Made by a program: the position numbers and the translations under genes. Positions 35,930 through 53,559 of a stretch of DNA of 64,000 nt are shown one piece after another. Each line of letters starts with the position of its first letter. Position 1 is the first letter of the stretch. The notes under the pieces were generated by a model, which was not told the DNA's origin, ran no database searches, and was given only the letters and a program-made list of their open reading frames with translations. Source of the DNA: a virus; the IMG/VR virus record IMGVR_UViG_3300006903_000012; one strand, 5' to 3'.

Positions 35930-36680
35930 AATAAAAATATTTCTGTTAAATGCTTCTAATATCACCGGCGGTCCGCAATAGAAAGAAACCCCAATCTCGT
36001 AAGGTTAAGAAGAACTATCGCGTAGCCTTACCCTTCCAGTTTATTTTCGTAACCCATAGTTCCTAGCATCCTACCCGGATAGATCACAGTTACCTGTGCC
36101 CCTATCAATGGCAGTTATAGGATCGAGTTTTTCAACCAGAACAGATTGGCAGCTGACCAGACTGATCTAGCTCATGCTATTGGGTCCTGTCCATGAGCTA
36201 CGGCTGAATTGTTTATCTAAATACTATCTGGGTGTCTTACACCTTGCGGAATATTTATTCGGTATATTGTTCCCTCGATCTTAATCGAGTTTTGCTAGAG
36301 AACCATCGTCCCAGTTACATTCACAATGTTTATCGGCTCTCACCAGGAAGGCTTGTCTTATTGGCTTGCTGTCCAGATGCTTCTTGCATCGCCATCGCAG
36401 GCGACATCTGGGACTTGTCAATTCAAGTTCTGACTCTGGGCCGGCCATTATTCCGCTCACCTTGCTAGTCTGTCTTCGTTATTAATCTCGTTTCAAGATT
36501 TCATAACTTACTCGGTTGCGCGCCGAGACCAGACCGCAGATAGTAATGTTATTTAGTTGTTATTACTTAATTCCCAATTATCGAACATCCCGTTCCCAGG
36601 CGACCAGTGAAGCGGGAGGTATATGCGGCTTGCGCACACATATGCTTCACAACCAACGCAGTTCATTTCTTGTTATCACA
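35930..36680 (-). other. ORF-less ~750-nt structured region (element B) containing at least two degenerate group-I-like ribozyme cores
   Basis: There is no minus ORF of 60 aa or more. Module 1 (about 36600-36400) has CUCGG-cgcgcaa-CCGAGUAAG (36527-36511), a P6-like GUUAU...AUAAC, CAGACUAG (36472-36465), AGAGUCAGAACUUG (about 36440-36427) and a P9-like hairpin. Module 2 has an 8-bp hairpin AGCUCAUG/CAUGAGCU (36199-36169) followed by AGAUCAGUCUGG (about 36168-36157). Confidence 0.5.
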
Positions 36681-37633
36681 AAGGCTCTTTATCCTTTGTT
36701 TCTATATGTCACCATATAGTTCAGACTATATCTTCACCCAAAAACAAGGATGGCCCGCTCTCGTGGAAGAATTATTGTCCAAAATAAGGACTCACTTCTA
36801 GTCGTTACACCTTCAAGCAGTTTTCACTGCGAGCTTGGCTCGGTATTGCCTTATAAAGGTTTTCACCGACTTCACGGGCTTTATACGCGGCAGCTGCGAT
36901 GATCTTTTAAACCCTCTGTATCTCGGATCAAATTTTGCATGAATTTTTGAATGACAGCTCATGCAGACAGTAACAAGATTTTCTTTTGAATGATTATCTT
37001 TACCAAAATCAATATGATGAACCCTAAGAAGCTTCTTGGATGAACAAAGAACGCACTTATAACCATCTCGTTCTTTAATTCGTTTCTGAACCTTACCATT
37101 CCAACCAGGAGCATAGCCAACCAAAGAACCGTGCCCGTGTCGAAACCAGTGGTGTTTCTTTCCTCGATGAACATTCGGACTAGCTCGTAAAAGTTCCGAA
37201 TGTGCCTCCCTTTCTTTTGGATCATCAAACCTATTTGGTCTATACTTACAGACACACGACTTACAAAATTTAGCAGTTCTAGATTTTATCTGTTTTCCGC
37301 AATCTTTACAGAACCTTGGTTTTACAAGTTTCTTTTGCCTGCCAAATGATCTAGCATATTTAGCAAATTCAGAACCGTGAGGGAGTTGGTCTCCTGCTAA
37401 ATATTTTCTATAACAAGGCCGGCAATAACCAGTTTTTGATTTTCCGTAAGGCGGATTACTTTTATTCAGCTTAGTTTTACAAACCTTACACCTAGGACGA
37501 ATCTTTTCTTTACAGACAGGACAAAGATAAGCCCGTGGGTTTATCTTTCGATGCTTGCATCTAGGACATACTTTTTTGTAATTGTGCGCCATTCCGGCAT
37601 CCTTTGTTACTATCAAAACAGAGATAAAAACAT
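36681..37633 (-). mobile_element. Group I intron-like element carrying an HNH endonuclease ORF, immediately 3' of the capsid stop codon (I8); boundaries unresolved
   Basis: Minus-strand core has UCGGUGAAAACC...AAUACCGAG (about 36880-36840), GUGUAACGACUAGAAG (about 36813-36798), GAAGAUAUAGUCUGAAC (about 36735-36719) and the P9 hairpin CUAUAUGGUGACAUAUAG. This is the same consensus as the capsid introns. Confidence 0.65.
36813..37616 (-). CDS. HNH homing endonuclease with N-terminal CxxC zinc-ribbon repeats (probable start at the ATG giving MAHNYKK...)
   Basis: Contains CVLCSSKKLLRVHHIDFGKDNHSKENLVTVCMSCHSKIH (HNH motif) and several CPRC/CPVC/CKVC pairs. The 3' end overlaps the ribozyme P4-P7 region. 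Confidence 0.8.
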   Translation of the reverse strand: MIVTKDAGMAHNYKKVCPRCKHRKINPRAYLCPVCKEKIRPRCKVCKTKLNKSNPPYGKSKTGYCRPCYRKYLAGDQLPHGSEFAKYARSFGRQKKLVKPRFCKDCGKQIKSRTAKFCKSCVCKYRPNRFDDPKEREAHSELLRASPNVHRGKKHHWFRHGHGSLVGYAPGWNGKVQKRIKERDGYKCVLCSSKKLLRVHHIDFGKDNHSKENLVTVCMSCHSKIHAKFDPRYRGFKRSSQLPRIKPVKSVKTFIRQYRAKLAVKTA

Positions 37634-37855
37634 CTACTGTATTATATCATATTCTACCGCGTAAACTTCAAAAGATATTGCCGTACACCCGGGCATCAAG
37701 TCCTTGAAACTGAGCGGGGTCTGTGTTGATTTGTAAACCAGCGGTTCACCGTTGTGGAACACACGCAACGGATAAACCGTCGAACTAAACGTCTTATCAC
37801 CCACCGCCGTCGCCGGGTACCGGAAGTCAGGCACCAGGATCAAGCGACCGATAGA
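37634..37855 (-). CDS. Major capsid protein, predicted exon 8 of 8 (SIGRLILVPDFRYPATAV...YAVEYDIIQ*)
   Basis: The track ORF 37634..37843 starts at an internal TTG. The frame is open upstream to a G (37856; alternative 37865) that can serve as the terminal G of intron I7. Confidence 0.6.
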   Translation of the reverse strand, partial: SIGRLILVPDFRYPATAVGDKTFSSTVYPLRVFHNGEPLVYKSTQTPLSFKDLMPGCTAISFEVYAVEYDIIQ

Positions 37856-38287
37856 CGTGTCTATCGCATCCTTTATTTGTTATCACTCAAAAAATAATGA
37901 GTGAGCGCAAGCATTTCTGTTGCACTCTGCAACTTATCATTTGTTGCAGAACAGACTATATCATATTCCGGAACAACCCGGAACTCGCCCTCTTAGTCGT
38001 TACACATTTAGGATAGTCGAGATTTATTTAGGACCGAACCACAAAATGGACAATAAGTTACTGGAACTCCATAGCAGAATTCTTTATCTGATAAAGTTAA
38101 GAACCAAACATCAGATAATTTTTCAATAGCCGCATCTGGAACCTTATCTTTACAAACATGTGTCTCAGTAATCTCATCTTCCCACATTCTCTAACTATCT
38201 CCTTTAGCTCGGTGTTATCATTTCAGACTTCCACCGAATTCGAGCGATTTGCACACAACCATTACTGATTGTGGGGCCTAAAAATTA
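37856..38287 (-). mobile_element. Group I intron I7 in the capsid gene (with a 59-aa ORF in the P6 region)
   Basis: The minus strand begins UAAUUUUUAGGCC (P1 with exon GGCU, U-G at 38288). P2 is CACAAUCAGUAAUGGUUGUG. The core has UUCGGUGGAAG...AACACCGAG, GUGUAACGACUAAGAGGG, P8 GUUCCGGGUUGUUCCGGAAU, and AUGAUAUAGUCUG, with P9 CUGCAAC...GUUGCAG. Confidence 0.8.
38008..38187 (-). CDS. Intron-borne small ORF (59 aa) MWEDEITETHVCKDKVP...YCPFCGSVLNKSRLS, Zn-ribbon-like
   Basis: Hand-translated (below the track cut-off). ATG at 38187 has an AAAGGAG RBS about 10 nt upstream; there are C-x-n-CxxC cysteines. Confidence 0.4.
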   Translation of the reverse strand: MWEDEITETHVCKDKVPDAAIEKLSDVWFLTLSDKEFCYGVPVTYCPFCGSVLNKSRLS

Positions 38288-38372
38288 AGCCAAAACAAAG
38301 CCGGGAACAATCTGCCCGTCTTTCTGTTGGATGATTTGCATGATGGGATGAGTTGAGCCGAGCTGAGTTGCG
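38288..38372 (-). CDS. Major capsid protein, predicted exon 7 ((I)ATQLGSTHPIMQIIQQKDGQIVPGFVLA)
   Basis: 85 nt between the terminal G of I6 (38373) and the U-G splice site of I7 (38288). Its first nt completes the AT left by exon 6, and an in-frame UAA follows directly in the intron. Confidence 0.55.
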
Positions 38373-39447
38373 CCCAAACTTAAATATCCCTTCTTTCAAT
38401 CGCTCTAGCATCACTGCTAGGATTAGACTATACCTTCATCCACAAACATTATGGATGTCTGCGTGTTGCAGGTATTTTATATTTGGCTTCGAATTTTTTA
38501 ATTTTTTCAATAAGTTTAGATTCATTTTTCAAATCATCTGTTCGAAGAATAAGAAGTTTGTATCCTCTAAGTCGATAATCCTTGTTTCTTTTCTTGTCAC
38601 GTTCAAAACTTTCTTCTCGACTATGCCAATAGTTACCATCATATTCAATAATCAGGTTATGCGTTCGGTGAACAAAATCAGGTACATGTCCCGCTACCCA
38701 GACCTTGCCCGAACCAACGAAACGATAATTGAATTTATGTTCTTTAAGGATACCTAACAACTTCTTTTCGTGTGAGTTCGCATGCCGTCGACTGCTACCC
38801 ACAATCTTCTTAGCAAACTCGATAATCTCCTCAGGCGATTTCCGAGACCAAGTTTTACTAAAACTGGCCGCTCGTTTTCTGGAAATGTCATCGTTACCCC
38901 AATTAGCTGCGTACATTTTTACCCAATTTTCAGGATCCGATAACCATTCAGTAGTTTGTATTGATTTTAGTTGACTGAAAGCTTCCAACTCACTAGGAGA
39001 TTTTGAATACCAAGATTTTAGAAAAGCTGCAACCCTTCTTTCTCTCACATCTGGATTATCATAGTTATTTTTCCTAAGTTTTTCTTGAAACTCAGGATCG
39101 GTATGATTTTCCGACATGATTTTGGATCGCAACTTCCTAAATTTTGGAGTTTGCTTAGATTCTCGCATCTTCTTTCTATAAACAGGGTCTTTAAACTTTT
39201 CTGACATTACCTTTCGCATTTTCTTCCGAAATGCTTCTTTCTCGGCTTCAGTCATTCGATCCCATTTAGACAGCTTTTCGCCATTCTTATTTTTCTTAGC
39301 CATAAAAATACCTGCCTCGGATTTCTCCTCAGTCGTTACGGGGCTAAATGTTTGATTACATCAGCTTCCCTCGGTGTTGTCTACTTGAGATTTCACCGAT
39401 ATAGCAGAATTTTACATACCCATTACTGGATAAGGCGACAAAAATTT
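38373..39447 (-). mobile_element. Group I intron I6 in the capsid gene, carrying a Vsr-like endonuclease in P8
   Basis: P1 pairs exon GCGAU (39452-39448) with GUCGC. P2 is UAUCCAGUAAUGGGUA. The core has AUCGGUGAAAUC...AACACCGAGGGAAG, CCCCGUAACGACUGAGGAGAAAUCCGAG, and 3' GAUGAAGGUAUAGUCUAAUC, with P9 CUAGCAGUGAUGCUAG. Confidence 0.8.
38449..39303 (-). CDS. Intron-encoded Vsr-like (PD-(D/E)XK superfamily) homing endonuclease with NUMOD3-like basic repeats (284 aa)
   Basis: The C-terminus GHVPDFVHRTHNLIIEYDGNYWHS resembles the Vsr pattern (PD..........DG.FWH). The N-terminus has repeats of the form ..E.R.K....K. The stop lies inside the P8/J8-7 region. Confidence 0.65.
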   Translation of the reverse strand: MAKKNKNGEKLSKWDRMTEAEKEAFRKKMRKVMSEKFKDPVYRKKMRESKQTPKFRKLRSKIMSENHTDPEFQEKLRKNNYDNPDVRERRVAAFLKSWYSKSPSELEAFSQLKSIQTTEWLSDPENWVKMYAANWGNDDISRKRAASFSKTWSRKSPEEIIEFAKKIVGSSRRHANSHEKKLLGILKEHKFNYRFVGSGKVWVAGHVPDFVHRTHNLIIEYDGNYWHSREESFERDKKRNKDYRLRGYKLLILRTDDLKNESKLIEKIKKFEAKYKIPATRRHP

Positions 39448-39686
39448 ATCGCTTCTAGCGCTTTCGGATGACCAAAGATGTGCGTTGGTTTCGCACACCC
39501 CGCCACCAAAAAGTTGTCGAACTCTTCAATGTCAAAGCTGCCAGTCGGATTTGCATTCACACGCGCGCCGTTAGCGGCCGTGACTTGGGTCGTAATACCA
39601 TCAAAGGCTTTCGAGTTAGTATTGCGATTACCCTTAACGATAGCCCTGTCCCAATATTGAAGCGTTAAAATTTCTTGCAGCTTGAT
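39448..39686 (-). CDS. Major capsid protein, predicted exon 6 (IKLQEILTLQYWDRAIVKGNRNTNSKAFDGITTQVTAANGARVNANPTGSFDIEEFDNFLVAGCAKPTHIFGHPKALEA-)
   Basis: A 239-nt open frame, hand-translated and checked codon by codon. It matches the HK97-family capsid signature as I remember it (....a.i.G......F.G.......p..i..hP....). The start could also be 39680 or 39677. Confidence 0.7.
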
Positions 39687-40023
39687 CTCTTTTCATGGTT
39701 ATCCACTATTACTAGTGGCATGGACTATTCCTTCATCCGCGATTTGCGGAGCCTGCGTATTGCAAGTTACTTATTACTTGCCTCGCCTTTCGGCTCAGTC
39801 TCTACGGGGTCACGAAGACTTCCCTCGGAATTATCCATCTTATGATAATGGATTTTATCTTTCTCAATAGTAAGATAATCAAAAACAATCTCATTCTCAG
39901 AAAGATATTTTTCAATGTCTAAAAGTTGATTAGTTGTTAGCATAAGTTTGGACTTATCCGATATGAGCAGGTTATTATTGCAAGCAATTACTCGCTTGCC
40001 AGGCTATCATTGAGATTTCCTTA
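39687..40023 (-). mobile_element. Group I intron I5 in the capsid gene (with a 58-aa ORF through P5-P8)
   Basis: It begins UAAGGAAAUC...AUAGCC (P1 with exon GGGGU, U-G at 40024). P2 is GCAAGCGAGUAAUUGCUUGC. The core has CUCAUAUCGG...UUCCGAGGGAAGUCUUCGUGACCCCGUAGAGACUGAGCCGAAAGGCGAG and GAUGAAGGAAUAGUCCA, with P9 CCACUAGUAAUAGUGG. Confidence 0.75.
39767..39943 (-). CDS. Intron-borne small ORF (58 aa) MLTTNQLLDIEKYLSENEIVFDYLTIEKDKIHYHKMDNSEGSLRDPVETEPKGEASNK
   Basis: Hand-translated, ATG at 39943. It overlaps conserved ribozyme core sequence, so coding is doubtful. Confidence 0.3.
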   Translation of the reverse strand: MLTTNQLLDIEKYLSENEIVFDYLTIEKDKIHYHKMDNSEGSLRDPVETEPKGEASNK

Positions 40024-40047
40024 ACCCCCATTACTTGAACGCAAGTT
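40024..40047 (-). CDS. Major capsid protein, predicted micro-exon 5 (NLRSSNGG)
   Basis: 24 nt between the G at 40048 (1 nt after the I4 P9 hairpin) and the U-G splice site at 40024, in frame, followed by an intron-initial UAA. Confidence 0.4.
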
Positions 40048-40954
40048 CCCATCTATTACTAGATGGCTTAGACTATACCTTCAAAGGCCGCGTATTATCA
40101 AGACAAAATAAAAGTCTCGATCTCGGATTTCTCCTCAGTCGTTACGGGGTCAAACTTTTACAAGTCGACTTCCCTCGGTATTACCCTCGTCTTCAGCGGT
40201 CGGGTTTCACCGATATGAGCGGCGTGCCGGGCCATTTCTTATTTTCCGATAAAGGCCGGAAAGCTAATTTTCTGCTTCCTGCTTCCGATCAATTTCTGCA
40301 TCACTTTCTCATCGAAGCTTTTTATCTTATCAGCTACCTGCCCAATATTTTTTAACTCTTCAGCCCAAAGAATCAGAACCGAAAATCCTTGCTTTTTGAT
40401 ATACTCAATACGCTTCACATCATAGCACCGCATTTTTCCATCTTTCCTATGATGGGTATACCCAAAAACATCGATAACAGCTTTAGCGTCCACTCGACAA
40501 AAATCAGGGCAGAATCTGCCAATCATTAGTCGACCATTCCCAACATACTCATACGGCAGATCCATCAATTTTAGAATATCCCGCACTTGCTGTTCGGGTA
40601 ATGATAACGGACGATTCCACAACGAGCTAGAAAGTCTTTCAGCACCATAAGTCGGATCTGTCTTATACAAAATTCTAGACTTCTTCCTTGCCTTCTTGGC
40701 GGCCTTACTTCTAACATCAGTTGTTAAGTGAGCTAGCCCGGTTTTCTCAAAAAGACCCTGCTTCATTCTTATTGAGTGTTCCTTACCCTGTTTAGCTGTT
40801 TTCTTTTTTCCTTCGGGTGTAGCATGATACAACTTCTTTGACTTTGAAATCTTCTTTGCGACTGCTTCACGTTCCTTTGCTGAACGGTTCTTCCAAAGTC
40901 TTTTTGCAGCTATTGAACATTTAATGCCTTTACTGGTCTTTTGCATATAGAATT
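40048..40954 (-). mobile_element. Group I intron I4 in the capsid gene, carrying a Vsr-like endonuclease upstream of P3
   Basis: Proposed P1 pairs exon GGUU (U-G at 40955) with GACC. After the ORF comes a full core with CUCAUAUCGGUGAAACCC...AAUACCGAGGGAAGUCGAC, CCCCGUAACGACUGAGGAGAAAUCCGAG, P8 AUCGAGAC...GUCUUGAU, and GAAGGUAUAGUCUAAG, with P9 CCAUCUAGUAAUAGAUGG. Confidence 0.8.
40239..40946 (-). CDS. Intron-encoded Vsr-like homing endonuclease (235 aa)
   Basis: YEYVGNGRLMIGRFCPDFCRVDAKAVIDVFGYTHH is paralogous to HE 41290..42126 (YEFVGNGKLMIGRYCPDFKRDDYRALIELGGFRH). The N-terminus has basic repeats. Confidence 0.65.
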   Translation of the reverse strand: MQKTSKGIKCSIAAKRLWKNRSAKEREAVAKKISKSKKLYHATPEGKKKTAKQGKEHSIRMKQGLFEKTGLAHLTTDVRSKAAKKARKKSRILYKTDPTYGAERLSSSLWNRPLSLPEQQVRDILKLMDLPYEYVGNGRLMIGRFCPDFCRVDAKAVIDVFGYTHHRKDGKMRCYDVKRIEYIKKQGFSVLILWAEELKNIGQVADKIKSFDEKVMQKLIGSRKQKISFPAFIGK

Positions 40955-41249
40955 AACCCCATCAAGTTGCGTACTGAGCTGCGAAATACCAAGCCCTTGA
41001 ATCCGGGCCACCGCAATCGAATGGCGGATTTCTTCGTTCGTCAAACTTTTCTTCCCGCCAATATACCGGCGGGTCTGACTCTTATTCGACCCATCGTGAG
41101 TATATTCCTCAGGACAAGAACCAGGGTCGAAGAAACCTTGATAAGTTGCGCCGTCACCACTGAAGTCTAGCGTAGTCATTTCACGCCAAAGATCAGCTTG
41201 GTAATCAGTCACAACTTCTGGAAGAACTCTCCAGTTCGTGATTTCTTCG
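40955..41249 (-). CDS. Major capsid protein, predicted exon 4 ((I)EEITNWRVLPEVVTDYQADLWREMTTLDFSGDGATYQGFFDPGS...GISQLSTQLDGV); the 5' end may be 41261 or 41264
   Basis: This is most of track ORF 40910..41254 (whose TTG start is an artefact). It ends at the phase-0 GTT (40957-40955). The three possible acceptor Gs are 41250, 41262 and 41265. Confidence 0.55.
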
Positions 41250-42270
41250 CACAACGTTAAGCATCATTTTCAGTTACCTGAAAGATAGACTATACCTTCA
41301 TCCTCTTTCGAGGAGCTCTGCGTATTACCGTATTGGTTTCTTTTAGTCGTTCCGACTTTTGTATCCTCTTATCAAAAATCAATAATTTAACCGCTAAGGA
41401 TTCCAAATCTTGTAATTCATCTTCATCGATAACTAAAGTCTGATATCCTTGAGATTTTATGTACTCAGTTCTTTTCTCAACTCGATCTCTCAGCTTTTTG
41501 GTCTTCTGATATGCCTTATGCCGAAAGCCACCTAGCTCAATCAAGGCGCGATAATCGTCTCTCTTAAAATCAGGACAATACCGTCCAATCATCAGTTTAC
41601 CATTACCAACAAATTCATAAGGTAATCCCAGTAGCTGTAAAAACGATTCAAGTTGGATCTCAATTCTGGACATCGAGCGCTTATTTAGAATTTTAGAAAC
41701 AGTATCAGCATGAACATCGCAAGATTTGTAATGCTCGTTTATTGATTTCTTAAACTTCTTCCTTCGAACAAGTCCGCCAATTTTCCAAATTTTCTTCTGT
41801 ATCTCAGATAGATACTTCCGATGAGATGCTGTTCTGACAGTTTTTCGTAGCGCTGTAGTTCTTCGTTTTCGTATTTTGGGGTCTGTCCATTCCAATTTTC
41901 TCATCTCACTGCGTCGTTTCTGCTTATCTGGATCAGAGTAATAGATATCTTGTTGTCGCTTTGCTCTTTCTTTTATTTTGCTAGGAGTCAGAATCCGCTT
42001 CTGAGCGACACTCTTCGCTTTATTTACCCTCTTAAGTTCTGACTTAGATATCTTATACTTGTATGCTCGTACTGGCTTTCCTGTTCTTGGACTTGTTCTA
42101 ATTTTATTTTTCCGGCTCAAGGCCAATCCTCCTACTTTACAATACGGTCTCGCCTTTCGGCTCAGTCGTTACGGGGTCACGAAGACTTCCCTCGGTGTTG
42201 TCCCTGTGGGAGTTCACCGATATGAGCAGAGTTGTTTCATGTGTATTACTACACAAGGAGACCTTAGTTG
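41250..42270 (-). mobile_element. Group I intron I3 in the capsid gene, carrying a Vsr-like endonuclease in P8
   Basis: P1 pairs exon GAGAU (42275-42271) with GUCUC. P2 is UGUGUAGUAAUACACA. The core has GCUCAUAUCGGUGAACUCCC...AACACCGAGGGAAGUCUUCGUGACCCCGUAACGACUGAGCCGAAAGGCGAG and 3' GAUGAAGGUAUAGUCUAUC, with P9 UUUCAGGUAACUGAAA. Confidence 0.8.
41290..42126 (-). CDS. Intron-encoded Vsr-like homing endonuclease (278 aa, TTG start with AGGAGG RBS)
   Basis: See 40239..40946. The N-terminal half is Lys/Arg-rich and repeated, and the stop lies inside J8/7-P7'. Confidence 0.65.
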   Translation of the reverse strand: MALSRKNKIRTSPRTGKPVRAYKYKISKSELKRVNKAKSVAQKRILTPSKIKERAKRQQDIYYSDPDKQKRRSEMRKLEWTDPKIRKRRTTALRKTVRTASHRKYLSEIQKKIWKIGGLVRRKKFKKSINEHYKSCDVHADTVSKILNKRSMSRIEIQLESFLQLLGLPYEFVGNGKLMIGRYCPDFKRDDYRALIELGGFRHKAYQKTKKLRDRVEKRTEYIKSQGYQTLVIDEDELQDLESLAVKLLIFDKRIQKSERLKETNTVIRRAPRKRMKV

Positions 42271-42293
42271 ATCTCAGTTGGATCAATCGGTTG
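42271..42293 (-). CDS. Major capsid protein, predicted micro-exon 3 (QPIDPTE + 2 nt); alternative acceptor gives 42271..42287
   Basis: 23 nt between the G at 42294 (after the I2 P9 hairpin CUAUAUC...GAUAUAG) and the U-G splice site at 42271. It leaves phase 2, which exon 4 completes. Confidence 0.4.
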
Positions 42294-42486
42294 CTTTGTT
42301 ATCTATATCTTCACATTCGATATAGGTCAGACTATCTCATCACCCACGTTTGTGGGGCTTCCCTCTTAGTCGTTACACATTGCCCGACTGCAGTTAGCAA
42401 TCTGCTTAGCTCGGTGTTGGCATCACAGCGTTCACCGAATTCGAGAAGTTTTATATCAGTTAATTACTTAACTGTACCCCCAACCG
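42294..42486 (-). mobile_element. Minimal (about 193 nt) ORF-less group I intron I2 in the capsid gene
   Basis: P1 pairs exon ACCCU (42491-42487) with GGGGU. P2 is AGUUAAGUAAUUAACU. The core has CUUCUCGAAUUCGGUGAACGC...AACACCGAGCUAAGC, GUGUAACGACUAAGAGGGAAG, P8 CCCCACAAACGUGGG, and UGAUGAGAUAGUCUGACC. Confidence 0.8.
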
Positions 42487-42522
42487 AGGGTATTGGGCCG
42501 TAAAATCGGTTGGCGTCACATA
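42487..42522 (-). CDS. Major capsid protein, predicted micro-exon 2 (YVTPTDFTAQYP)
   Basis: 36 nt, phase 0 to phase 0, between the G at 42523 and the U-G splice site at 42487. An alternative frame exists, so confidence is low. Confidence 0.4.
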
Positions 42523-43020
42523 CGGTTGTGGACATTTTGTTACTTAGGAAGTGATTCTATAAATTCATCTATTGTTGCGAACTCTGTGTAGCGTCCATTG
42601 ATTATATCTTCGTCTACTTTGGCTTCTTTCTGTTGCCATTCCTTTGTCCAAAACCATTGCTGATCTAACAAAGAACTTGCTAACAACAGACTAGTCCAGA
42701 TACTGACAAGTCGTCCGTTTGATTTCCTCAAAGCTATATAATCAAACAAGAAGACCCTTGGAACCTGAAGCAATCGACCAAACCAAGAACGTCGCTTCAA
42801 TGGATAAACCATAACTTATCTCCTAAGGATCAATCATTTCTGTTGATCTCTTACACTTCTAATTTGTGCAAGTTCAGACTATCTCTTCGTCTTGAAAGAC
42901 GCTATCCGTATAGTCGTTACACATTTAGTTAATTGATTAACTTTTAGCTCGGGATTAGCGTCGCAGCCTTCCCCGAATTAGGATAGATCGCATAAATAAA
43001 TCTTATGCCCCTCACTATTG
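42523..43020 (-). mobile_element. Group I intron I1 in the capsid gene (with a 90-aa ORF 3' of P9)
   Basis: P1 pairs exon UCCUU (U-G at 43021) with GAGGG. P2 is GCAUAAGAUUUAUUUAUGC. P3 is UAUCC/GGAUA. P4 is UUCGGGG...UCCCGAG. The rest of the core is GUGUAACGACUAUACGGAUAG, P8 CGUCUUUCAAGACG and AAGAGAUAGUCUGAAC. Confidence 0.8.
42540..42812 (-). CDS. Intron-borne ORF of unknown function (90 aa)
   Basis: AGGAG RBS 7 nt upstream of the ATG at 42812. No nuclease motif recognised. Confidence 0.45.
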   Translation of the reverse strand: MVYPLKRRSWFGRLLQVPRVFLFDYIALRKSNGRLVSIWTSLLLASSLLDQQWFWTKEWQQKEAKVDEDIINGRYTEFATIDEFIESLPK

Positions 43021-43296
43021 AAGGATCACCGGATCCGTCGCCTTTGTCACCAACCCGCCATCCAACCCTTTGGATTTCAAAATATGCTCTGTCATAGACT
43101 TCACGAGCAACGGATCAGCTTCGAAACCCTGGGCATTCAAATTCTTCAAAACTTGTTTCGTAATTTCGTCAGCGCCGTATGGATCATTCAGATTCACACC
43201 AGCGCTTTTTGCAAACAGACGAGCCGCATCATTGGCCGACATACCAGCCACCGGCAACACTTGCGGCACCGTCAACATATTATCAAAAGCATCCAT
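43021..43296 (-). CDS. Major capsid protein, predicted exon 1 (MDAFDNMLTVPQVLPVAG...KATDPVIL)
   Basis: ATG at 43296 lies 20 nt after the scaffold stop. 92 codons run up to the U-G splice site, and the track ORF stop (43015) lies 2 codons into the intron. Confidence 0.6.
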
Positions 43297-53270: not shown

Positions 53271-53559
53271 TTTGTTACAAAGTCTTACAGACCTTTGAGT
53301 AAGTCATTTCTGCTCACTTCTTGCAATTCCTATTTCTTGCAAGTTCAGACTATATCATTATCTTTCTTCAAGATAGTTCCCACATAGTCGTTACACACTT
53401 CCGCAGATGCGGGTTGGCTCGGTATTTGGACTCTCACCATTCACCGAATTCGAGAACTGTTACAACATCCATTACTGGATGAAGCCGCCAAGTTGACGGG
53501 TTAAGTAGGGGGGCGGTTGCTGTATACTCGTCGGCGCAACCGACTTCTGTACAATAAGT
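53268..53559 (-). mobile_element. Group I intron core (I0) abutting the first codons of the portal ORF; 5' splice site unresolved (the element may include HE 53560..54432)
   Basis: P2 is CAUCCAGUAAUGGAUG (about 53484-53463). The core has UUCUCGAAUUCGGUGAAUGG...AAUACCGAGCCAACC, GUGUAACGACUAUGUGGGAA, P8 UAUCUUGAAGAAAGAUA, and AUGAUAUAGUCUGAAC. P9 is UUGCAAG...AUUGCAAG, followed by two more hairpins. A candidate terminal G is at 53268. Confidence 0.7.

Follow-up and report, generated by a model that had tools for sequence, protein, structure and literature searches.

Micro-exons between adjacent group I introns in an uncultured phage's major capsid gene

We examined a 64,000-nucleotide stretch (the window) of IMG/VR virus record IMGVR_UViG_3300006903_000012, a complete virus record of 111,877 base pairs (bp) with terminal repeats, and found that its major capsid gene, which runs from 43296 to 36567 on the minus strand, consists of nine exons separated by eight group I introns. 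Three of the exons are micro-exons of 46, 23 and most likely 18 nucleotides (nt) that lie between adjacent group I ribozymes, and we consider it likely that each of these ribozymes is independent of its neighbors and that no unusual form of splicing is involved. The joined exons give a single open reading frame (ORF) of 444–446 (approximately 445) amino acids with one terminal stop codon, which is approximately 80% identical over its full length to P0001, an intron-less capsid homolog from an uncultured phage. The gene product is an HK97-type major capsid protein of a phage. Judged from the sequence, the restoration of one ORF by exons that are all in order and in frame is far beyond chance.

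The gene model was obtained by alignment of P0001 to the region, with all in-frame donor and acceptor pairs being listed and scored. At every junction except that of intron 5, the top colinear junction also had U just 5' of the intron and G as the last intron base (the U/G rule). The resulting features, all on the minus strand, are as follows.

43022–43296, minus strand: exon 1, 275 nt, ending in ...CCU in phase 2; colinear with P0001 and other homologs.
42533–43021, minus strand: intron 1, group I class A, with its core at 42850–43031 and terminal G at 42533; match to Rfam RF00028 of 55.4 bits.
42487–42532, minus strand: exon 2 (micro-exon), 46 nt, which finishes a Leu codon and then provides 15 codons, from PQPYV to AQYP.
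42294–42486, minus strand: intron 2, group I class A, 193 nt, without an ORF; Rfam match of 52.2–52.4 bits.
42271–42293, minus strand: exon 3 (micro-exon), 23 nt, encoding QPIDPTE and two bases of an Ile codon.
41262–42270, minus strand: intron 3, group I class B, 1009 nt, with an ORF for a DUF559-type endonuclease (Pfam) at 41290–42126.
40956–41261, minus strand: exon 4, 306 nt, ending in ...GGGGU; 82–88% identical to P0001 and P0003.
40042–40955, minus strand: intron 4, group I class B, 914 nt, with a DUF559 endonuclease ORF at 40239–40946 and terminal G at 40042.
40024–40041, minus strand: exon 5 (micro-exon), 18 nt by canonical rules, with an alternative end at 40018 (24 nt).
39694–40023, minus strand: intron 5, group I class B, 330 nt, without an endonuclease and with terminal G at 39694; Rfam match of 27.1 bits, below threshold.
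39448–39693, minus strand: exon 6, 246 nt, starting A AAA GAG...; PHROG 212 (major head protein).
38397–39447, minus strand: intron 6, class B, placed by colinearity and the U/G rule; Rfam match.
38288–38396, minus strand: exon 7, 109 nt, placed by colinearity and the U/G rule.
37871–38287, minus strand: intron 7, class A, placed by colinearity and the U/G rule; Rfam match.
37656–37870, minus strand: exon 8, 215 nt, placed by colinearity and the U/G rule.
36664–37655, minus strand: intron 8, class A, placed by colinearity and the U/G rule; Rfam match.
36567–36663, minus strand: exon 9 with the stop codon, 97 nt, placed by colinearity and the U/G rule.

For comparison we used close full-length homologs (P0001 and P0003–P0009; 440–450 amino acids, 72–88% identity on exon 4), the DNA being examined for L008 and L010, as well as more distant uninterrupted capsid genes from the IMG/VR contigs L001, L002 and L004 (39–57% identity), none of which showed an Rfam intron match. 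Exon 6 is 52–55% identical to the capsid proteins of L001 and L002 and >80% identical to those of the close homologs, and the segments encoded by the micro-exons were present in the homologs in the protein alignment. In a survey of 100 loci with relatives, the capsid gene was interrupted only in L006/L007; further intron-laden relatives, L101 and L102/L103, were located by way of gene fragments. L102 yielded seven Rfam matches in its capsid gene and shares the sites of introns 2, 4, 6 and 7 of the window, with four other sites besides, whereas L101 has five intron sites and L006 two. Together with the window, these relatives define approximately 17 distinct intron sites in one protein of approximately 445 residues.

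A first-pass annotation of this region had predicted three tiny exons between adjacent ribozymes, with lengths of 36, 23 and 24 nt and encoding YVTPTDFTAQYP, QPIDPTEI and NLRSSNGG, respectively. Three such exons do exist at approximately the predicted places, but the exact coordinates held for only one of them. The 23-nt exon at 42271–42293 had been placed exactly: it follows the terminal G of intron 2 at 42294 and ends on the U at 42271, and QPIDPTEI has a counterpart in every homolog, with seven of eight residues matching. Intron 2 itself is matched in L102 by an intron at the identical codon boundary. With regard to the 36-nt exon (42487–42522), the 3' end was correct but the 5' end was off by 10 nt, the true exon being 42487–42532. 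The extra ten bases complete the Leu codon and encode PQP, which is present in all close homologs and was lost from the earlier model; the homologs have PQP before YV, and the corresponding codons are in frame just upstream of the 36-nt exon. Scored against the homolog, the 5' junction of exon 2 reached 162 for the 46-nt form versus 127 for the 36-nt form. Twelve of the 15 residues of exon 2 are identical to those of P0001, and this stretch is contiguous with exon 1 in L102, in which the exon 1–2 and exon 3–4 junctions are both uninterrupted. The highest-scoring junction between exon 1 and intron 1 is also the sole U/G option, and Rfam sets the U·G pair of the P1 helix there.

The third predicted exon (40024–40047, 24 nt) is also present, but both its reading frame and its 5' end proved to be wrong. 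NLRSSNGG has no counterpart in the homologs and scored 72, compared with 136–159 for the other frame. The homologs read LDGV-TQVMGV-KEKE-IKLQ at this position; in the window, DGV ends exon 4 and VQVMGV is encoded in the micro-exon, in that other frame, such that exon 5 comprises the last base of a Val codon, VQVMG and the first two bases of another Val codon. The 3' junction of exon 4 was set by L102 together with the homologs. L102 carries an orthologue of intron 4 at the same codon, with an endonuclease that is 62% identical, and has no intron 5. L102 is exactly colinear with intron-less homologs solely when its 3' splice site is placed after the conserved tail ...ACUUG. Given that the same ACUUG tail is present in the window, we assigned the terminal G to 40042 and the start of exon 5 to 40041. 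A start at 40041 provides a 4-bp P10 pairing with the bases just 5' of the intron 4 guide, whereas the site proposed earlier provides no P10. A variant in which exon 5 spans 40047–40024 in the correct frame was also considered; it was rejected on the basis of the L102 orthologue, P10 and the intron tail, which place the terminal G at 40042.

The earlier exon model as a whole is thus extremely improbable in our view: the codons for DGV and TQVMGV lie in a frame that it did not use, and its junctions are contradicted by the orthologous intron of L102. It was nevertheless internally consistent, being in frame and having U and G at all four sites, and a small local hairpin could act as P1 at its exon 4 end, so that only comparison with homologs exposed the error. 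A self-consistent, in-frame U/G intron model built from sequence alone can therefore be wrong in frame.

The last five bases of intron 4, including the terminal G, can pair with CAAGU of exon 5 to form a 5-bp hairpin with a 4-nt loop (40028–40047, minus strand), and the same stem, with a different loop, spans the 3' splice site of the orthologous intron in L102 (L102:2862–2885). As read from these two sequences, such a hairpin might sequester or present the 3' splice site of intron 4. When the surroundings of exon 5 and of the other micro-exons were folded locally as RNA, no clean P1 or P2 resulted, and the outcome did not discriminate between splice sites.

The flanking introns each have the features of a separate ribozyme. 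The Rfam group I model RF00028 matched at eight places between 43031 and 36702, such that all eight introns were matched, and the alignments covered P3 to P9 with a conserved J8/7 in every intron. Introns 1, 2, 7 and 8 belong to class A and introns 3 to 6 to class B, the class B cores being 72–83% identical to one another, with a range of 75–83% for introns 3 to 6. Four introns contain endonuclease ORFs, three of the DUF559 type and one of the HNH type. A terminal G was found at the colinear junction in all eight introns of the window and in all 15 introns of the relatives, and U at position –1 together with G at the intron end was present in 22 of 22 introns other than intron 5 (window, L102, L101 and L006). 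In the window, L101 and L102, nearly all class A introns have a common tail composed of a hairpin closed by GUAAC, an A-rich run and G; this motif aided placement of the 3' splice sites, which lie 30–330 nt past the end of the Rfam match, and the 3' tail of intron 1 carries the class A ending that is common to the L101 and L102 introns. On these sequence features, the introns are predicted to self-splice.

The P1 and P10 pairings of the introns that flank the micro-exons, which were checked by script, are as follows.

Intron 1 (42533–43021, minus strand): P1 of 4 bp with exon 1; P10 of 2 bp with exon 2.
Intron 2 (42294–42486, minus strand): P1 of 6 bp with the last 6 nt of exon 2; P10 of 6 bp with the first 6 nt of exon 3.
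Intron 3 (41262–42270, minus strand): P1 of 5 bp with the last 5 nt of exon 3; P10 of 4 bp with exon 4.
Intron 4 (40042–40955, minus strand): P1 of 4 bp with the end of exon 4; P10 of 4 bp with the first 4 nt of exon 5.
Intron 5 (39694–40023, minus strand): P1 of 4 bp with the last 4 nt of exon 5; no P10.

A P1 of 4–6 bp with U·G at the splice site could be drawn for introns 1 to 7, in the case of intron 5 only with the canonical site at 40024. The suggestion of the first-pass annotation that the P1/P10 context of these introns comes largely from a few exon nucleotides was borne out, with only 2–6 nt at the ends of the micro-exons serving for P1 and mostly also for P10. The P10 and P1 segments occupy opposite ends of each micro-exon without overlap, and the introns could therefore splice independently. 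The guides lie 7–20 nt into the intron, with the exception of intron 4, whose guide is located 723 nt downstream, past the endonuclease ORF. In both intron 4 and its L102 orthologue, the endonuclease ORF begins approximately 10 nt past the 5' splice site (40946–40955 in the window) and the guide follows the ORF (40225–40240). Given that the ORF precedes the guide and so lies within the P1 loop, the P1 of intron 4 must span a loop of approximately 720 nt.

We propose that each flanking intron acts as a complete, separate ribozyme that would define its own splice sites in the ordinary way. P1, of 4–6 bp, would form between the 3'-terminal bases of the preceding exon, whose final U pairs with G, and a guide just before P2, and in introns 2, 3 and 4 a P10 of 4–6 bp would form with the first bases of the downstream exon. 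The introns would splice independently of each other, presumably in the order of transcription, and no trans, nested or composite splicing would be required. The micro-exons would owe their origin to the accumulation of homing introns in the most conserved parts of the gene.

The sharing of guide and target sequences by neighboring introns makes exon skipping possible, and the earlier question as to whether exons might be skipped was a fair one. Either of the guides of introns 1 and 2 is a fit for the end of exon 1 as well as for that of exon 2, and the same kind of sharing applies to introns 4 and 5. Loss of exon 2 (46 nt) by itself, or of exon 3 (23 nt) by itself, would be frameshifting. On sequence grounds, skipping in the capsid gene is thus a possibility. 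In the published account of Twort and of engineered tandem Tetrahymena introns, exon skipping was seen in just such an arrangement, the downstream intron taking the junction upstream of it for its distal 5' site (PMC10136302).

A more radical form of this idea is that neighboring cores make up a composite or twintron-like unit, or that exon 5 is skipped every time as a pseudo-exon, with exon 4 being joined directly to exon 6. The guides of introns 4 and 5 do fit the ends of exons 4 and 5 equally well, seven bases across both splice sites are identical, skipping of exon 5 (whether 18 or 24 nt) would preserve the frame, and skipping by similar tandem introns is documented for Twort (PMC10136302). 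On the other hand, exon 5 keeps the conserved VQVMG in frame as well as the P10 of intron 4 and the P1 of intron 5, and a product lacking it would lose six to eight conserved residues. Introns 4 and 5 each have a complete core and a terminal G; moreover, intron 4 occurs alone in L102 and an element similar to intron 5 occurs alone in L101, which indicates that each works on its own. We therefore regard a composite unit or an obligatorily skipped exon 5 as very unlikely. The twintron or composite units that had been offered as an alternative reading of the region do not agree with the finding that every intron has its own core and that the intervening sequence is coding sequence matched by homologs, and the trans- or nested splicing raised at the same time is not needed, each intron having its own core, guide and splice sites.

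Several observations weigh against the interpretation of all these introns as independent ribozymes with canonical splice sites. The gathering score of RF00028 is 50 bits, and four matches in the window exceed it, three in the capsid gene and one outside (53326–53505). Introns 3, 4 and 5 fall below this threshold, with E-values of 3e-6 to 0.5: intron 3 gave two half-matches flanking its ORF, with 18.5 and 29.6 bits, and intron 4 gave 35.7 bits. Introns 3 and 4 are split by their ORFs and intron 5 by an insert in the P5 loop (L5). The core of intron 3 is 83% identical to that of L101_224, an intron without an ORF, and the core of intron 5 is 75–78% identical to those of introns 3, 4, 6 and L101_224, its 3' end also being homologous to that of L101_224. 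Intron 5 has substitutions in the P7 and J8/7 core in addition to the lowest model score, however, and its activity is thus not assured. The public runs found to contain the sequence comprised only the rhizosphere DNA sample that is its probable source, and no RNA run; among the contigs of that sample, the source contig was the sole one found, with no intron-less variant. Finally, the canonical 5' splice site of intron 5 gives a protein with one KE, whereas the KE-KE stretch is gapless in 15 of 15 aligned homologs (K228 and E229 being invariant), and the six bases after 40024 are exactly the missing codons, a coincidence whose chance we estimate at approximately 1 in 500.

The 3' end of exon 5 was therefore weighed separately. 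We favor, with moderate confidence, an exon of 18 nt that ends at 40024, the canonical 5' splice site of intron 5. Ahead of P2, intron 5 has GCCU as its sole guide, which is placed exactly as in the paralogs and pairs with the GGGU ending at 40024, with U·G at the site. The intron 5 DNA may have landed six bases downstream of a usable GGGU, in which case the ribozyme would remove those six bases as well. The resulting loss of two residues would be tolerable given that clades already differ by 14 residues in the loop upstream.

The competing placement is a 24-nt exon (40041–40018), with intron 5 cut between GGA and AAAAGAG, which would restore VKEKEI and set the 5' splice after A rather than U. 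In its favor, the 40018/39693 junction scored best against homologs (159 versus 136 for the canonical junction), the KE-KE stretch remains gapless as in all 15 aligned homologs, the six bases past 40024 encode the very residues that would otherwise be missing, and all 22 other junctions are exactly colinear with homologs. Yet no P1 can be drawn for the 40018 site, given that the GCCU guide pairs with GGGU at 40024 and that A would face G, and U occupies position –1 in all 22 other introns compared; the 14-residue difference between clades in the upstream loop also makes a two-residue loss tolerable. Natural group I introns are not known to have A at position –1. We judge the 24-nt form to be unlikely. 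If it were true, intron 5 would be a natural group I intron that picks its 5' splice site without a U·G wobble pair, and such a non-U site might be chosen by a ruler or with help from the similar neighboring intron 4.

Along similar lines, two capsid isoforms, both in frame, might arise from the guide and target that introns 4 and 5 share. Viral contigs scanned with two degenerate patterns revealed no orthologue of intron 5 at its site, and a scan of genome contigs with exon 6 revealed no relative. An AlphaFold model of P0001 had a mean pLDDT (predicted local distance difference test) value of 42.5, too poor to locate the micro-exon residues in the fold or to assess a two-residue deletion.

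The insert in the P5 loop of intron 5 is AT-rich, approximately 130 nt in length (39830–39960, minus strand) and contains a 58-amino acid ORF (39943–39767); paralogs are without it, and it may be what remains of an endonuclease gene that was lost. We also considered an exon hidden in this insert, with approximately 16 residues being suspected on the basis of a weak likeness of the 58-amino acid ORF to distant homologs. This idea was dropped because the close homologs form a whole clade without that 14-residue loop.

Small ORFs also occur in introns 1 and 7. Intron 1 has an ORF of 90 amino acids (42540–42812, minus strand) between P9 and the 3' splice site, with its stop codon inside the conserved intron tail; it had no match in Pfam or PHROG and no recognizable homing endonuclease. 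Intron 7 has a 59-amino acid ORF in the P6 region (38008–38187, minus strand) with a CxxC pair and a weak match to a PHROG of unknown function, and this ORF is smaller than a typical homing endonuclease. The capsid gene belongs to a block of head genes on the minus strand, in which genes for a 1106-amino acid head protein and a 523-amino acid acidic, scaffold-like protein come before it. A further group I intron (53326–53505, minus strand; 54.7 bits) lies in another head-module gene upstream of the capsid gene.

The crowding of introns is not confined to the window. The interrupted relatives have two to eight introns each in the capsid gene (L101:7500–10800, L102:600–5520 and L006:1270–3790), and approximately 95 other relatives have none. 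From these comparisons, the capsid gene appears to be an intron hotspot across this phage group, with polymorphic sites. In L101, three ribozymes are set apart by two micro-exons in succession, with lengths of 47 and 35 nt, and micro-exons are therefore a recurrent by-product of intron crowding in the capsid gene of this group.

Precedents for such an arrangement have been described. In orf142 of Staphylococcus phage Twort, there are three group I introns, of which introns 2 and 3 resemble each other and are separated by an exon of 23 nt, and exon skipping was seen (PMC10136302). As far as that account describes it, Twort orf142 resembles the present gene in being a phage protein-coding gene with tandem group I introns, an exon of approximately 23 nt and mutually similar flanking introns, a similarity that would permit skipping on mechanistic grounds; the present case differs in that it concerns an uncultured phage and its major capsid gene, with eight introns of two classes, three micro-exons and both DUF559 and HNH endonucleases, and in being known from sequence. 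For the 23S rRNA gene of Coxiella burnetii, the same source describes two group I introns that belong to different subgroups and enclose a 34-nt exon (PMC10136302). As presented there, it is comparable to exon 3, which lies between a class A and a class B intron, but unlike the capsid gene it concerns a bacterial rRNA gene and a single micro-exon. Micro-exons between organellar introns are reported for mitochondria, for example in fungal and placozoan cox1 (PMC12308204, PMC5436844). In the cases these reports cover, very short exons likewise result from self-splicing introns accumulating in conserved stretches, but the genomes are organellar, often with group I and group II introns side by side and with proteins assisting in splicing. 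In crAss-like and Jug jumbo phages, terL, nrdD and a polymerase gene are split into two or three pieces (PMC12880540), and essential genes of uncultured phages are thus similarly fragmented by many group I introns and homing endonucleases; in contrast to the present gene, the portions of that report dealing with these genes describe neither micro-exons nor an eight-intron capsid gene.

The three exons described here share the attributes of the Twort type in that they are shorter than approximately 50 nt, have complete ribozymes on both sides and encode residues found in uninterrupted homologs. The arrangement is a richer, unusually dense example of the type known from Twort and involves no new mechanism. 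Intron 5, for which the canonical splice rule and colinearity with homologs disagree, represents a small but concrete puzzle. The gene indicates that the crowding of group I introns into an essential structural gene of a phage can reduce exons to approximately 18–46 nt, and that exons of this size would still hold all the P1 and P10 recognition elements that both neighboring introns need. With two neighboring intron pairs whose guides are interchangeable, and with skipping that would keep the reading frame at one pair but shift it at the other, it would provide a natural system for the study of how tandem ribozymes avoid or exploit exon skipping, for which the prior basis has been Twort, Coxiella and engineered Tetrahymena constructs.

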